64,000 nucleotides of DNA from Candidatus Fermentibacteraceae bacterium (GTDB lineage Bacteria; Fermentibacterota; Fermentibacteria; Fermentibacterales; JCC-6). The stretch lies in NCBI GenBank assembly GCA_041750285.1, contig JBGSZS010000020.1:1-64000 (forward strand), given 5' to 3'. The position numbers were made by a program. This document shows, in pieces, positions 36,001-39,000 of the stretch (position 1 is its first letter; each line of letters opens with the position of its first letter).

Positions 36001-39000
36001 GCACGGTCGGCAAGGATCGCGCTCCTTATGTTGCCGTTGTACTCGTCAATGGACCTTACGCCCTGGCGGGTGAGCAGCGCGTACCTGTCCTCCATCTCCC
36101 TTACGAGCCTGTCCAGAAGAGCCTTGGCCCGCTGGGGATTGAGGACCACCGGAGCCCACAGGTGCGGCACGCCCTCATAGATGGAAAGTTCGAGCATTTT
36201 GGGATCGACCAGTGCAAGTCTCACCTGACTCGGGGTTCTGGTCATGAGTATGGACGTAAGGATGGAATGGATGCAAATGCTCTTGCCGCTTCCGGTCGCG
36301 CCGGCTATCAGCAGGTGGGGCATGTCGGCTATATCAACCACAAGGGGTTTTCCCTCGGCATTCTTGCCAAGGGCAACGGGTATCCTTTCGTTCTCCACCG
36401 AGACCAGGACCTCGCGAAGGTAGACCATTTCCGGGTTCTTGTTGGGCACTTCGATCCCCACGGTGCCCTTCCCGGGAATGGGCGCAAGTATCCTTATCCG
36501 CTTGGCAGCCAGCGCAAGCGCCAGGTCATCGGCCATGTTCACTATCCTGTTGACCTTCACCCCAAGACCCGGCGTCAGTTCATACCTGGTCAGCACCGGG
36601 CCTGCGCAGACCGTGCTCTCAAGACGGCACTCGATGCCGAAATCACCCAGTTTCTCCACAAGGGTGGCGCCCCGTTCCTGAATCTCCCTGGCGGACTGCC
36701 GTGTCCGCTCACCTGGAACGGGCATTTTAAGGCACTCGATGTCCGGAAGGGTGTATGCCGTCTCATCCCTGTCACCTGGCTCGGGCTGAACCGGCGCCTT
36801 TGTCTGCACCTTCGGACGGGGGGCCGTCCGTGCCGGCTCCGCTTCGGGTGTTTCGCGGAAAGGTTCCGGACGCGGGGAATCGTGGTAGAGAACCTTGACC
36901 TCGGGTTCGGTTTTGACGGGAACGGTTTCCTTCCGTACCCAGGGGCTGGAAACCGTTTCGGGGATGGGTTCGATGGTTTTGACCGCGACCGGTTTTGGTC
37001 TTCCGGACCGGGTCATCATCCTCCTGAAAAGGTTTTCGAGGTCGGTGCCCATGTCCCACCCCGTCAGGACGGCGACCGACGCGGTAAAGAGAAGGAAAAG
37101 AGCGAGCCATGTCAGGACTCCTCCCATGATCCCCTCGAGAGCCACCACGAGCTTGAGAACGAGCATGCCTCCGGGAAAACCTGCAGCGGAAGGACAAAAG
37201 CGCGCCAGAACGCAGGTGACCGAAGCTGCCAGGAAGAAGAGGGTCAGAAAAACACCGAACGTGATCCGCAACCATCTCGATGCAAAACCAAAACCGATGC
37301 ACAGCGCCCCGAGAAGGAAAATGACCGGCGGCACAAGAAAGGCCAGCAGCCCCACGGCATTCCTGAGTGTGCTTCCCAGAGCAACGAGAAGGCCGGCTCT
37401 GGATGGCGGGAAGGAAACGGCCACGAGAACCGCAAGGGATGCAAAGACCGCCAGAAGGAACGCTATCTTTCCCATCGGGTGGGTTCTGCGCGTCCTGCCC
37501 TTTTTTGCGGGTTTTCTGTTCATATGCGCCTGACCGACCTTCCGTCCGGGCCTGCGGGAAAGAGGGAATCGGGCTTCTGTGCTCCGTCAACGCTGTAGGC
37601 GTAGTGCAGGAGCTGTCCGGAGTGAAGGGATATCTCGGCGACCCAGCTTCCGTCGGGCAGCTTCTGCATCGGGTTGACCACGGGGTTCCAGCCGTTCCAG
37701 TCGCCCACCACTGAAACCCTGCGTGCTCCGGGGTGCCCGAGGCACAGGAACTCGACTACGGTTCTTTCGGAAAGCCCCTTGTGAACTGCATCCTTCAGGT
37801 CATCGTAAGGGCGGAACACCGGTTTGACACGGGGCGGTATCTCCATCACGCCACCCTGACCGGGGTTCCTTGCCCTCCGCAACTTCCCCTTCTTCGTGGT
37901 GAAGCAGCCGAATCCCCTGAGAAACACGCTTTCACCGGCACAAAGCCTTTCCGTGATGATCGAGAGCAGAACGACGGTAAGCGACTGCACCTCGCGAACG
38001 GTGAGTCCCGTTCGTCTCGCAGCCTCCCGTGCAAGTTCCTCGCGCGTCAAGCCGTCACCCCCCCGGATTGGGTATCTACTCATGCCATGAAGTTTTGAAT
38101 ATAGTCATAACCGGGGGGGAAGGTGCAGGGTCAGAACAACATGTGGGACAATATCAAACGGAACATCTGCTTTATCGCGGGCCCGCCGTTTTCGGGCAAG
38201 TCGACTGTCGGCGGCATCCTTGCGATAAGGCTTCGCATCCCGTTCAGAAACCTCGACGATATGATCGAGAAAGCCGCGGGCATGGAAATCCGCGACATTT
38301 TCGGAACCATTGGGGAACGCGGTTTCAGAAGCATTGAATCCAGAAGTCTCAAAGAGATCTCCGACTCCCCGGGACCGCTCGTCGTAGCGCTGGGCGGTGG
38401 AACCCTCCTTTTTCCCGGAAACCTTGAAACTGTCGTGTCGAGGGGGATCCTCGTAACACTCGCCCCGGATGAGACGGAACTCCTGACCCGTTTCGAGCTC
38501 TCCCGGGGACGCCCGCTCGTTCCCGATCACAAGTCACTTGAGGGTCTTCTGAAAGCCCGCCGGAAACACTACGACAGCCTTCCGGGAAGGATCGACACCA
38601 GGGGGAAGACCCCTGAAGAGGTGGCCTCCCTCATCGCTTCGAGCTTTGGTCTTCCTCTGATGCCTCTGTGAGCCCGGCCCTGGCAATCGTCTCCCGTGCG
38701 TGCGACAGCCCCACGAAGAAACGGTTCGTGTAAAGCGTGTAATCATCCCTGAGACGGGGTGGGGTCATGTTCACCGTGATGACGTTGGCACCGGCTTCGA
38801 AACAACGGTACTGCCCGTCGGGCAGAAGCTTCTGAAAGGTGCTGGTGGCGGGGATCAGGGTGTTCCCGAGATAGAGCCGCATTGCAGCGATGAACCTCAG
38901 TCCGAGCTCCGGGTCACCGCAGGGGTGACCGGCAAGAGGGGTGCCCGATGCCGGCATGAAGACCGATACGCTGGACATCTGCACCCCCAGCTCCTTCATG

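Follow-up and report, generated by a model that had tools for sequence, protein, structure and literature searches.

An HU-CBM48 fusion protein encoded directly upstream of ftsK in Fermentibacterota: a candidate nucleoid-glycogen tether

How a bacterium places its glycogen, and how it shares it out at division, is an open question, for which an unusual gene offers a ready-made candidate. The gene lies in the 64,000-nucleotide window analysed here (positions 1 to 64,000 of contig JBGSZS010000020.1, assembly GCA_041750285.1, Candidatus Fermentibacteraceae bacterium), it encodes a nucleoid protein of the HU type fused to a CBM48 module, and it is coupled to ftsK. Single proteins that hold DNA at one end and a storage granule at the other are established (PMC13052382; PMC3556143), and nucleoid tethers are known for granules of PHB and polyphosphate, while a 2025 organelle-positioning review makes no mention of glycogen (PMC13052382). 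E. coli cells collect their glycogen at the old pole, where it displaces both the nucleoid and the site of division (PMC11042326). Does the fusion tie glycogen to the chromosome, or has the module been turned to another use? The best reading, which we hold tentatively, is that the protein tethers glycogen while anchored to DNA and coupled to FtsK, much as PhaM, PhaF and AlgP do for their own granules.

The longest open reading frame at the locus (37520-38083, minus strand) would give a protein of 187 residues if its ATG were used. The relatives, by contrast, all share the N-terminus MTREEL, the same as that of the form beginning at TTG 38050; a G-rich run resembling a Shine-Dalgarno sequence lies 4 nt upstream of this TTG, and none was seen when the sequence ahead of the upstream ATG was inspected, and together these points support the TTG start (Table 1). 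An earlier note on this DNA had described the 176-residue product as a complete HU/IHF domain followed by a β-sandwich, and this architecture proved real; repeating the full-length AlphaFold2 model returned a pLDDT of 86.5 and a pTM of 0.56, close to the 88 and 0.58 first given. No signal peptide is seen in the N-terminus of the fusion, so the CBM48 module would be cytoplasmic, in the same compartment as glycogen.

Table 1. Features of the fusion locus, in window coordinates.
Feature	Position	Strand	Details	Evidence
HU-CBM48 fusion gene	37520..38050	-	176 codons plus TGA stop; TTG start at 38050	ORF, translation, family N-terminus, Pfam
Putative G-rich Shine-Dalgarno-like run	38054..38064	-	4 nt 5' of the TTG start	Read off the sequence
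HU/IHF-type DNA-bending domain	37772..38050	-	Residues 1-93	Pfam, solved-chain matches, invariant residues, model
CBM48-fold β-sandwich	37523..37771	-	Residues 94-176	AlphaFold2, structural matches, Foldseek, Pfam
ftsK	35292..37523	-	743 aa; directly downstream of the fusion, 24/24 loci	Pfam FtsK_alpha, FtsK_SpoIIIE, FtsK_gamma
ATGA overlap	37520..37523	-	Fusion TGA stop and ftsK ATG start; -4 overlap in 15/24 loci	Sequence
Lipoprotein-like conserved gene	34667..35278	-	Between ftsK and the lolA-like gene, 12/12 long loci	No Pfam match
lolA-like gene	34067..34639	-	Syntenic, 12/12 long loci	Pfam LolA, 5.1e-07
RimO/MiaB-type radical-SAM methylthiotransferase gene	32822..34066	-	Syntenic, 12/12 long loci	Pfam UPF0004 and Radical_SAM
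Shikimate kinase gene	38123..38671	+	Adjoins the fusion, 24/24 loci	Pfam SKI, 2.8e-29

The N-terminal half has every hallmark of an HU. Bac_DNA_binding (PF00216) matches at 69.8 bits, well over its cut-off of 22.4 (residues 12-100 of the 187-residue form, on which the Pfam scores for the fusion were computed), and in a sequence search solved HU and IHF chains, 5lvt among them, align to residues 1-91 with E-values down to 3.8e-12. AlphaFold2 predicts the secondary structure of the HU/IHF fold, two helices (α1, residues 3-14; α2, 18-37), a β-sheet with a protruding arm (48-81) and a C-terminal helix (α3, 83-93), and the Foldseek matches of this half are the HU/IHF chains 5lvt, 3rhi, 1hue, 8flj_E and 1p71. 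The GFGxF motif (F47, G48, F50) is invariant in 38 of 38 aligned sequences, as are R58, R59, R61 and P63, and the median net charge is +6, compared with 0 for the C-terminal domain. As far as sequence can tell, the HU half is shown to retain all the features by which a DNA-bending HU is defined, the arginines of the arm and the intercalating Pro63 among them. Its scores fall well short of the NCBIfam equivalogs, the best being IHF-alpha (50.2 bits, cut-off 111), with HU-alpha (28.1 bits, cut-off 162) and HU-beta (32.9 bits, cut-off 157) both far under threshold. The fusion is a third, phylum-specific HU paralogue, separate from HU-alpha, HU-beta, IHF-alpha and IHF-beta, and the genome also has the two plain HU paralogues listed previously.

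Selection acts on this half with particular strictness: within one genus the HU half has a median dN/dS of 0.05 and the CBM half one of 0.15, taken over 25 of 28 pairs after 3 without a usable dS were dropped. Coding-sequence comparison thus shows purifying selection on both halves. These values bear on the possibility that the protein binds no DNA at all. HU-HIG proteins of the Bacteroidetes (4FMR), from the same broad bacterial group, likewise carry a β-sandwich C-terminal to their HU domain, and there the Ig domain occupies the DNA cleft (PMC5499826); a fusion of this kind would have its clasp filled by its own Ig-like domain. Such an arrangement is on record, and Pfam HU-HIG (PF18291) matches the HU half weakly, at 19 bits, which is under its cut-off of 26.2. 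An arm freed from DNA would, however, not be expected to keep invariant arginines and proline or a dN/dS of 0.05; the fusion keeps its DNA arm, and where HU-HIG genes are fast-evolving, expanded and non-operonic (PMC5499826), it is single-copy, slow-evolving, operonic and coupled to ftsK. 4FMR is absent from the sequence search and from the Foldseek and structural-alignment matches listed, and kinship between the two may still exist, but we consider a fusion that binds no DNA very improbable.

The second half is an 83-residue domain with an almost rigid connection to the last HU helix. In the AlphaFold2 model its sandwich starts at residue 96, two residues past helix α3, and Leu93, at this linker, is nearly invariant in the 38-row alignment. 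Modelled alone, the domain reaches a pLDDT of 95.1. The earlier note lacked a fold search; we have now run one, which places the AMPK-β CBM, the E. coli GlgB CBM48 and SEX4 at the top. The first structural match is the AMPK-β1 glycogen-binding module 1z0m_B (Z 12.4, rmsd 1.5 Å, 76 of 81 residues aligned), followed by 4aef (Z 12.0), 2qlv_E (Z 11.8), 1m7x (Z 11.2) and 3nme (Z 11.0), and every top match is a CBM48 or CBM20 module. Pfam agrees by a narrow margin, with CBM_48 (PF02922) at 24.7 and 26.1 bits in two scans (cut-off 22.4) and AMPK1_CBM (PF16561) under threshold at 20.6 and 21.8 bits (cut-off 26.8), and out of 1.84 billion representatives those closest in sequence are CBM48/AMPK1_CBM proteins. 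G116 and W136 are invariant and N119 and W121 nearly so, as had been reported and as the 38-row alignment confirms. Equally invariant (78 of 78 sequences each) are E139 and R174, at positions that are hydrophobic in relatives, and the pair may be a structural salt bridge. We considered whether the invariance of R174 is a by-product of the ftsK ribosome-binding site and rejected this, as the codon is AGG, AGA or CGC across loci. The LPDGSW turn, invariant in the fusion family, was rejected as a family-specific functional site since PDGxW is also found in unrelated CBM48 proteins. Recent capture of the domain from the organism's own GlgB was likewise discarded, the GlgB CBM48 aligning over 23 residues only (E 3e-5).

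The earlier statement that the fusion is kept throughout Fermentibacterota holds, with a full-length copy in 60 of 70 genomes and a single one per genome in the rows examined; four of the misses checked have ftsK cut at its upstream end, one of them at a contig start. The count of 87 homologous proteins, nearly all 176-180 aa, was reproduced at E<=1e-3, and those with source names come from Fermentibacter, Sabulitectum or Aegiribacteria. Homologue, profile, contig and ESM Atlas searches found no HU-CBM48 fusion outside the phylum. The better evidence for this restriction comes from the profile search, in which only 8000 candidates were scored and the 72 matches at E<=1e-10 all belong to the fusion family, and from the ESM Atlas, which holds one single cluster combining HU and CBM48. 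A scan of genome contigs with a C-domain profile kept 80 loci, one of which has an HU upstream (L025, Fermentibacter daniensis), but it is weak evidence for restriction, being flooded by GlgB-type N-domains because one of its patterns was the common VSVxGxFNxW motif, and seemingly leaving out Fermentibacterota records largely. We found no description of such a fusion in the literature searched, which extended to neither subscription-only papers nor preprint supplements, and in the HU-superfamily survey (PMC5499826) the words carbohydrate, glycogen and FtsK never appear.

Whether a CBM48 fold means glycogen binding is less certain. In AMPK-β1, glycogen binding is lost with either W100G or K126Q and is diminished by W133L (PMC6274970). 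The equivalent of W100 is a Trp in 76 of 78 fusion sequences and is the sole AMPK sugar-contact residue kept; the other two sequences lack this FNxW Trp and retain all else. At the K126 position Lys is found in 5 of 78, the others having C, S, R, M, Q, N, A, L or Y, and at the W133 position Trp is found in 6 of 78, with mostly L or R elsewhere. From the conserved Asp equivalent to D136 to the C-terminus the fusion has 15 residues compared to 19 in AMPK, so the hairpin that bears L146 and T148 is shortened by four. An end-anchored mapping, uncertain since it was taken from the ends of alignment ranges, shows variation at the positions of T148 and N150 (N in 20 of 78), and the same uncertain mapping puts an Asp of the window protein where AMPK has T148; T148D blocks glycogen binding in AMPK (PMC4416872). 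The GDFNGW, W and Y.F.VDG signature is common to the CBM48 modules of debranching enzymes too, and for those with incomplete site residues no sugar binding is on record (PMC6243121); residue-level data on the E. coli branching-enzyme CBM48 sites are absent from PMC10254366. With only the W100 equivalent kept, the K126 and W133 equivalents free to vary and a shorter hairpin, glycogen binding by the domain is plausible but weakened. The original reading of a nucleoid protein that binds glycogen is supported in part: architecture, fold and conservation throughout the phylum are borne out, and organism and phylum carry the glycogen pathway, while the step from fold to glycogen binding is weaker than was assumed.

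The same evidence weighs on a sensory role, in which glycogen or maltodextrin on the sandwich would alter DNA binding by the HU half, so that nucleoid state or gene expression follows the carbon store. Such a sensor would share with the tether its fold and nearest structural neighbour, AMPK itself is inhibited by glycogen through its CBM (PMC2642990), and a short rigid linker could relay a conformational signal. All the arguments against sugar binding apply to it equally. Regulation by a ligand is not known for HU dimers, and we regard this role as improbable.

The genomic neighbourhood supplies the strongest context clue, which the earlier note had missed. At all 24 loci (23 genomes) a start codon for ftsK is found within -4 to +1 nt of the fusion's stop codon, those without the -4 overlap having a gap of -1, 0 or +1, which indicates translational coupling. 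All three families of the phylum keep the synteny. On the other side, the shikimate kinase gene is divergent from the fusion, with the two starts 72 nt apart, though in the five loci of family f2 it shares the fusion's orientation. The longest reading frame of the lipoprotein-like gene starts at 35425, with a likely start at about 35278, and an ESM Atlas LytR_C score of 0.85 is a lead only. In four genomes of other phyla (reached through L029, L046, L104 and L026), a very small sample from which a fifth was lost when G074 ended at a contig edge, tblastn at E<=1e-3 found no HU-like reading frame in the 4.1 kb upstream of the match to the FtsK motor, so the linkage of HU to ftsK is seemingly phylum-specific.

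This coupling suggests a role in which sugar has no part. If the sandwich binds none, it may be a protein-docking module and the fusion a DNA-bending cofactor of FtsK, the HU half bending or marking DNA while the sandwich binds FtsK or some other protein of segregation or division. In the linker of FtsK, which is variable among 13 sequences, a single Trp (W195) never changes; it lies in an N-x-W motif that could serve as the ligand. Strict start-stop coupling at 24 of 24 loci with synteny in all three families, the apparent phylum specificity of the linkage in the four genomes compared, and the degeneracy of the canonical sugar pocket all agree with docking, and CBM modules are known to bind proteins: the CBM-MSR region of plant MKIP1 (the CBM plus an MKIP1-specific region) binds MatK, branching activity having been lost (PMC13172542), and the debranching enzyme GDE binds residues 68-123 of AMPK-β1 independently of glycogen (PMC6274970). 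Gene order alone is nonetheless weak evidence for binding, and no family-specific conserved surface patch was identified, the LPDGSW turn being common to unrelated CBM48 modules and E139/R174 possibly just a structural salt bridge. Linkage of ftsK to lolA is, besides, a common arrangement. A docking role is in our estimate nearly as likely as the tether. It would make the fusion a new FtsK accessory factor in an uncultured phylum, and any sandwich that binds no sugar would offer a clear natural example of a CBM48 fold repurposed on a nucleoid protein. A bolder variant would have the degenerate sugar pocket accept the Trp motif of the FtsK linker, coupling a nucleoid protein to the DNA translocase.

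Nor need the sandwich have an outside ligand. As a structural add-on it could alter how HU packs DNA. Contacts between neighbouring dimers might lead to cooperative coating or bridging, or the sandwich might restrict the wrapping of flanking DNA round the HU body. The two-residue linker and nearly invariant Leu93 suggest a fixed geometry and not a flexible tether, no set of ligand-contact residues is conserved past the one Trp, and E139/R174 is invariant (78 of 78) where relatives are hydrophobic. The monomer model, however, has no confident interdomain contact (pTM 0.56), and the median net charge of 0 makes extra DNA contacts by the C-domain unlikely. An add-on would also leave unexplained why a CBM48 was recruited and why the Trp of an exposed loop is retained (76 of 78), and we think this explanation unlikely.

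The preferred reading, a tether, would work as follows. Like other HU proteins, the fusion would dimerise and clamp DNA whatever its sequence, and two CBM48 modules would therefore be exposed to the cytoplasm on each DNA-bound dimer. The modules would touch the α-glucan chains of glycogen weakly, and since many dimers would coat the nucleoid these contacts would be multivalent. The outcome would be a nucleoid-glycogen tether like those formed by PhaM, PhaF and PhaH for PHB granules and by AlgP for polyphosphate, and co-production with FtsK would let glycogen be apportioned with the chromosomes at division, as opposed to the pile-up at one pole reported for E. coli. Against this, a linker that is modelled with only two residues would be unusual in a tether that has to reach a granule.

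The phylum does make glycogen, to judge by its genes: of 70 genomes, 67 have glgA (46 of the 46 of high quality) and 65 have glgB (45 of 46). In the genome studied here, the glycogen genes listed earlier were only partly borne out: glgA and glgB are there, the glgC-like protein scores 412.8 bits, just under the 424.9 cut-off, and glgP is a weak GT35-type match of 43.7 bits. The Hyd24-12 genome paper describes a complete glycogen pathway and neither a PHA nor a trehalose pathway, with glycogen as the sole storage compound listed for the phylum (PMC5030696). As the fusion and glycogen genes occur together in all genomes, co-occurrence cannot separate the readings. Were the tether real, production in fixed proportion with FtsK would partition the sole carbon store alongside the DNA at division. 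That the fusion is the first dedicated bacterial glycogen-positioning protein known, whose HU dimer hooks glycogen to the chromosome to be partitioned with the DNA, is a possibility we put forward with considerable doubt.

Known systems resemble the fusion in logic or in parts. PhaM, PhaF and PhaH, for PHB, and AlgP, for polyphosphate, join a non-specific DNA part to a granule part, as proposed here; PhaM and PhaF bind DNA through histone-like domains, so that granules ride on the nucleoid (PMC13052382). None has sequence or fold kinship to the fusion, with its HU fold, CBM48 and putative glycogen cargo. HU is joined to a glycan-binding module in bacterial proteins that combine HU-CCDC81, a membrane helix and SPOR or LysM, for which a role in anchoring the nucleoid to another structure of the dividing cell has been proposed (PMC5499826); their glycan is peptidoglycan, outside the membrane, whereas the HU-CBM48 protein has no membrane segment and its module belongs to an α-glucan-binding family. 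Of the CBM modules, that of AMPK-β (1Z0M, 1Z0N, 4YEF) has the same fold and size, is likewise cytoplasmic and non-catalytic, and shares the FNxW Trp, a core Tyr, the VDG turn and a DP motif, but sits on a kinase scaffold and not on a DNA-binding protein. Plant PTST/FLO6, a CBM48 with a coiled coil, is a non-catalytic adaptor that brings a partner to glucan; its CBM48 binds cyclodextrin with a micromolar Kd, and its coiled coil recruits starch enzymes in place of DNA (PMC6243121).

The nearest sequence relatives of the C-domain are small stand-alone bacterial CBM48 proteins (such as P0187 and P0216), one of which aligns over 65 residues at 52% identity (E 5e-21). They share the PM..(L/M)PDGxW turn with the fusion and likewise have no Lys/Trp pair, and differ from it in having no HU domain. 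Around their genes, at 19 metagenome loci (67 of 103 reading frames, those nearest the match, scanned), no glycogen-metabolism family and no recurring neighbour was seen. Their ESM Atlas clusters carry the name 'isoamylase early set domain-containing protein'.

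The fusion gene is a real, conserved and unusual feature. Its longest reading frame opens at an ATG (see table), but the shorter form starting at a TTG was accepted because the same MTREEL N-terminus opens every relative, and because a G-rich Shine-Dalgarno-like run, read from the sequence at 38054-38064, lies 4 nt upstream, with no comparable run before the ATG. Members of the genus start this gene with TTG, GTG or ATG. In Pfam, Bac_DNA_binding scores 69.8 bits and CBM_48 reaches 24.7 bits, just above the 22.4 cut-off, while AMPK1_CBM (20.6 bits) and HU-HIG (19 bits) fall below their cut-offs; the protein fits none of the NCBIfam equivalogs for HU or IHF (top score 50.2 bits, cut-off 111). 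The homologue counts and invariant residues of the earlier note were reproduced by homologue search and alignment.

Features of the fusion locus and its surroundings, in window coordinates
Feature	Position	Strand	Remarks
Fusion ORF, longest form	37520-38083	minus	187 aa from ATG
Fusion ORF, 176-aa form	start TTG 38050	minus	accepted start
ftsK	35292-37523	minus	linker at residues about 170-258
Conserved gene between ftsK and lolA-like gene	34667-35425	minus	lipoprotein-like N-terminus; 12/12 long loci
Radical-SAM/BATS, shikimate dehydrogenase and B12-binding radical-SAM genes	38631-41853	minus	adjoin shikimate kinase
CAP-domain protein gene	41662-42585		just upstream of HD_5 pair (Pfam)
Two adjoining HD_5 (HD-GYP-type) protein genes	42483-45655	plus	549 and 509 aa (Pfam)

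Solved HU and IHF chains align over residues 1-91 (E down to 3.8e-12), every one of the 38 aligned sequences has the GFGxF motif, R58, R59, R61 and the intercalating P63, and the structure model predicts the standard layout of helices 3-14 and 18-37, arm strands and a helix at 83-93, all of which confirms the HU domain as intact. With a median net charge of +6, this half looks, from its sequence, like a working DNA-bending domain. The fusion protein would dimerise and bind DNA like other HU proteins, each dimer presumably displaying two sandwiches. That the sandwich instead plugs the DNA cleft, as the C-terminal Ig-like domain does in the Bacteroidetes HU-HIG protein 4FMR, is highly improbable given the invariance of the DNA arm. 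The genome also holds the two further, plain HU genes previously claimed for it (33% and 29% identity).

Fold searches bore out the CBM48-type fold proposed for the C-terminal half. Modelled alone from a 78-row alignment, the C-domain reaches a pLDDT of 95.1 and a pTM of 0.85, and the top Foldseek entries are the AMPK-β CBM, the E. coli GlgB CBM48 and SEX4. Re-aligning this list placed the AMPK-β1 module 1z0m_B first (Z 12.4, rmsd 1.5 Å over 76 residues, model residues 95-176 onto chain residues 76-155), and an independent all-against-representatives structure search returned 4aef (Z 12.0), 2qlv_E (Z 11.8), 1m7x (Z 11.2) and 3nme (Z 11.0). In the structure model the sandwich begins at residue 96, two residues past the last HU helix; Leu93 at the junction is nearly invariant, and the junction is predicted to be almost rigid. 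Median dN/dS within one genus is 0.05 for the HU half and 0.15 for the C-domain (25 of 28 pairs, three dropped for unusable dS), pointing to purifying selection on both halves.

A search of 1.84 billion representative proteins with the C-domain gives 1453 matches at E≤1e-3. Top-scoring are proteins that string together 2-17 CBM48/AMPK1_CBM repeats in tandem, and the fusion family supplies only two representatives (P0069, P0082) of the best 150 of these 1453. The stand-alone small CBM48 protein P0187 matches at 52% over 65 residues (E 5e-21), whereas the genome's own GlgB module aligns over only 23 residues (E 3e-5), so a recent GlgB copy was rejected as the origin of the domain. Two proteins from other bacteria, P0220 (212 aa) and P0226 (198 aa), have one CBM48, at the C-terminus, after an N-terminal region of ~110-130 residues which contains a hydrophobic stretch, is not HU and has no Pfam match; the paired Cys motifs of P0220 are, we presume, reminiscent of anti-sigma factors. 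P0087 (196 aa, from a 628-base contig) has a family-type HU half, but its sequence past residue ~95 is unlike the family sandwich, with precomputed Pfam matches to WD40-type β-propeller families, and may be either an assembly chimera or another kind of fusion.

The fusion protein as query finds a match in 68 of the 70 genomes of the phylum, including 46/46 of high quality. Conservation throughout Fermentibacterota, as the earlier note had it, holds for the 60 genomes with a full-length copy; the other ten have contig-end pieces or a broken copy (G048, G007, G043), a match through plain HU only (G022, G028, G032, G033, G060) or no match to this query (G030, G055). The ftsK match is cut at its N-terminal side in G032, G028, G033 and G060, where its first aligned query residue is between 57 and 309 and, for G060, the match opens at contig position 1; these four absences look like assembly breaks rather than demonstrated losses. 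One of the full-length copies (G023:C291:872-1399) contains a single in-frame TAG, in a genome 67% complete. The fusion was not found outside the phylum by profile search (72 proteins at E≤1e-10 among 8000 candidates scored, all of the fusion family), in the ESM Atlas (one cluster with both domains, of 100 members, from Fermentibacterota) or by genome scan, where HU lay upstream of the CBM48 match in 1 of 80 loci, that of Fermentibacter daniensis.

An HU survey covers fusions to Ig-like domains as well as to SPOR or LysM domains that bind peptidoglycan; carbohydrate, glycogen and FtsK do not occur in it (PMC5499826). Neither an HU-CBM48 protein nor a glycogen-nucleoid tether was found described in the literature searched, which excluded subscription journals and preprint supplements. 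We therefore see the protein as a variation on established types, namely HU fusion proteins, CBM48 adaptors and nucleoid tethers, and not as categorically new.

Two main options for the ligand of the sandwich were weighed, namely glycogen, bound by a DNA-anchored, FtsK-coupled tether, and a protein partner. Of the glycogen genes named in the earlier note, glgA, glgB and a glgC-like gene are present, and GlgB and the fusion are the only CBM48-bearing products of this genome. Across the phylum glgA occurs in 67/70 and glgB in 65/70 genomes, and the first genome paper on the phylum reports a complete glycogen pathway without a PHA or trehalose pathway (PMC5030696). As the fusion and the glycogen genes co-occur everywhere, co-occurrence cannot test their link.

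The earlier note assumed a stronger sugar site than the sequences show. Equivalences were set by aligning the C-domain profile to the AMPK-β1 chain, and residues were counted over 78 family sequences. AMPK-β1 W100 corresponds to W121 (Trp in 76/78) and D136 to D161 (Asp in 76/78); K126 corresponds to A151 (Lys in 5/78, Arg in 12/78, others C, S, M, Q, N, A, L or Y) and W133 to Q158 (Trp in 6/78, Leu in 27/78, Arg in 18/78). Glycogen binding by AMPK-β1 is abolished by W100G and K126Q and weakened by W133L (PMC6274970). The stretch from D161 to the C-terminus counts 15 residues, compared with 19 from D136 to V155 in AMPK, so the hairpin carrying L146 and T148 is 4 residues shorter. By a mapping that is uncertain, being anchored only on the aligned range ends, the T148 and N150 positions hold variable residues (N in 20/78), with Asp at T148 in the window protein; T148 lies centrally in the AMPK pocket, where a T148D change blocks binding (PMC4416872). 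For debranching-enzyme CBM48 modules with incomplete site residues, sugar binding has never been demonstrated, according to a review (PMC6243121). Glycogen binding, as the earlier note has it, is a possible reading, but not the sole good one.

The LPDGSW turn is invariant in the family but was rejected as special to it, since PDGxW also occurs in secreted tandem and stand-alone CBM48 proteins; the secreted tandem proteins retain the Lys and Trp. The family-specific invariant residues are E139 and R174 (each 78/78), hydrophobic in relatives, which we would guess form a cross-strand salt bridge. One f2 lineage (L023 in G004; P0084, P0085) has CDGR in place of FNxW and has lost the sugar-platform Trp, with the remaining invariant residues and the coupling to ftsK retained; G004 has glgA and glgB.

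The coupling to ftsK is the most solid new fact on the fusion gene. ftsK follows directly in 24/24 loci (from 23 genomes that span the phylum's three families), with an in-frame start -4 to +1 nt from the fusion stop (-4 in 15 loci, -1 in 4, 0 in 2 of the same genome and +1 in 3). Taking the nearest start codon favours small gaps; the coupling is nevertheless far beyond chance, and in ten loci the FtsK alignment starts, at query residue 1-9, exactly at the chosen start. In four genomes of other phyla, a small sample in which ftsK starts were not located, no HU-like ORF was seen over the ~4 kb preceding the ftsK motor match. The FtsK linker differs in both length and sequence among 13 Fermentibacterota sequences, apart from one invariant Trp, W195, in an N-x-W-x-(R/E/K/Q) motif that looks like a putative short docking motif.

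This motif in an otherwise variable linker, the ftsK coupling and the degenerate sugar pocket all favour a protein partner, most simply FtsK, as do two precedents: MKIP1, whose CBM48 serves as a protein platform with MatK (PMC13172542), and GDE, which binds AMPK-β1 residues 68-123 (PMC6274970). We consider such a partner a tentative, somewhat unlikely alternative, though nearly as probable as the glycogen tether, and a purely structural role for the sandwich distinctly less probable. A glycogen tether would resemble PhaM, PhaF, PhaH and AlgP, which bind DNA by one end and a granule by the other (PMC13052382), and the report that, in E. coli, glycogen left untethered accumulates at the old pole and skews division (PMC11042326) offers a reason to link it to FtsK.

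Past ftsK the order is lipoprotein-like gene, lolA-like gene and RimO/MiaB-type gene in the 12/12 loci of sufficient length. The lipoprotein-like gene has no Pfam match and, as a lead only, an ESM Atlas match to LytR_C (score 0.85); its true start is probably near 35278, since the longest ORF of this gene shares bases with the end of ftsK. A shikimate kinase gene lies upstream of the fusion gene in all loci, divergent in family f1 and co-directional in f2, where (L013-L016, L023) aroE, radical-SAM/BATS and aroK form one long array, all in one direction, with the fusion gene and ftsK. In most loci, synteny with the fusion locus extends to the radical-SAM/BATS and shikimate dehydrogenase genes.
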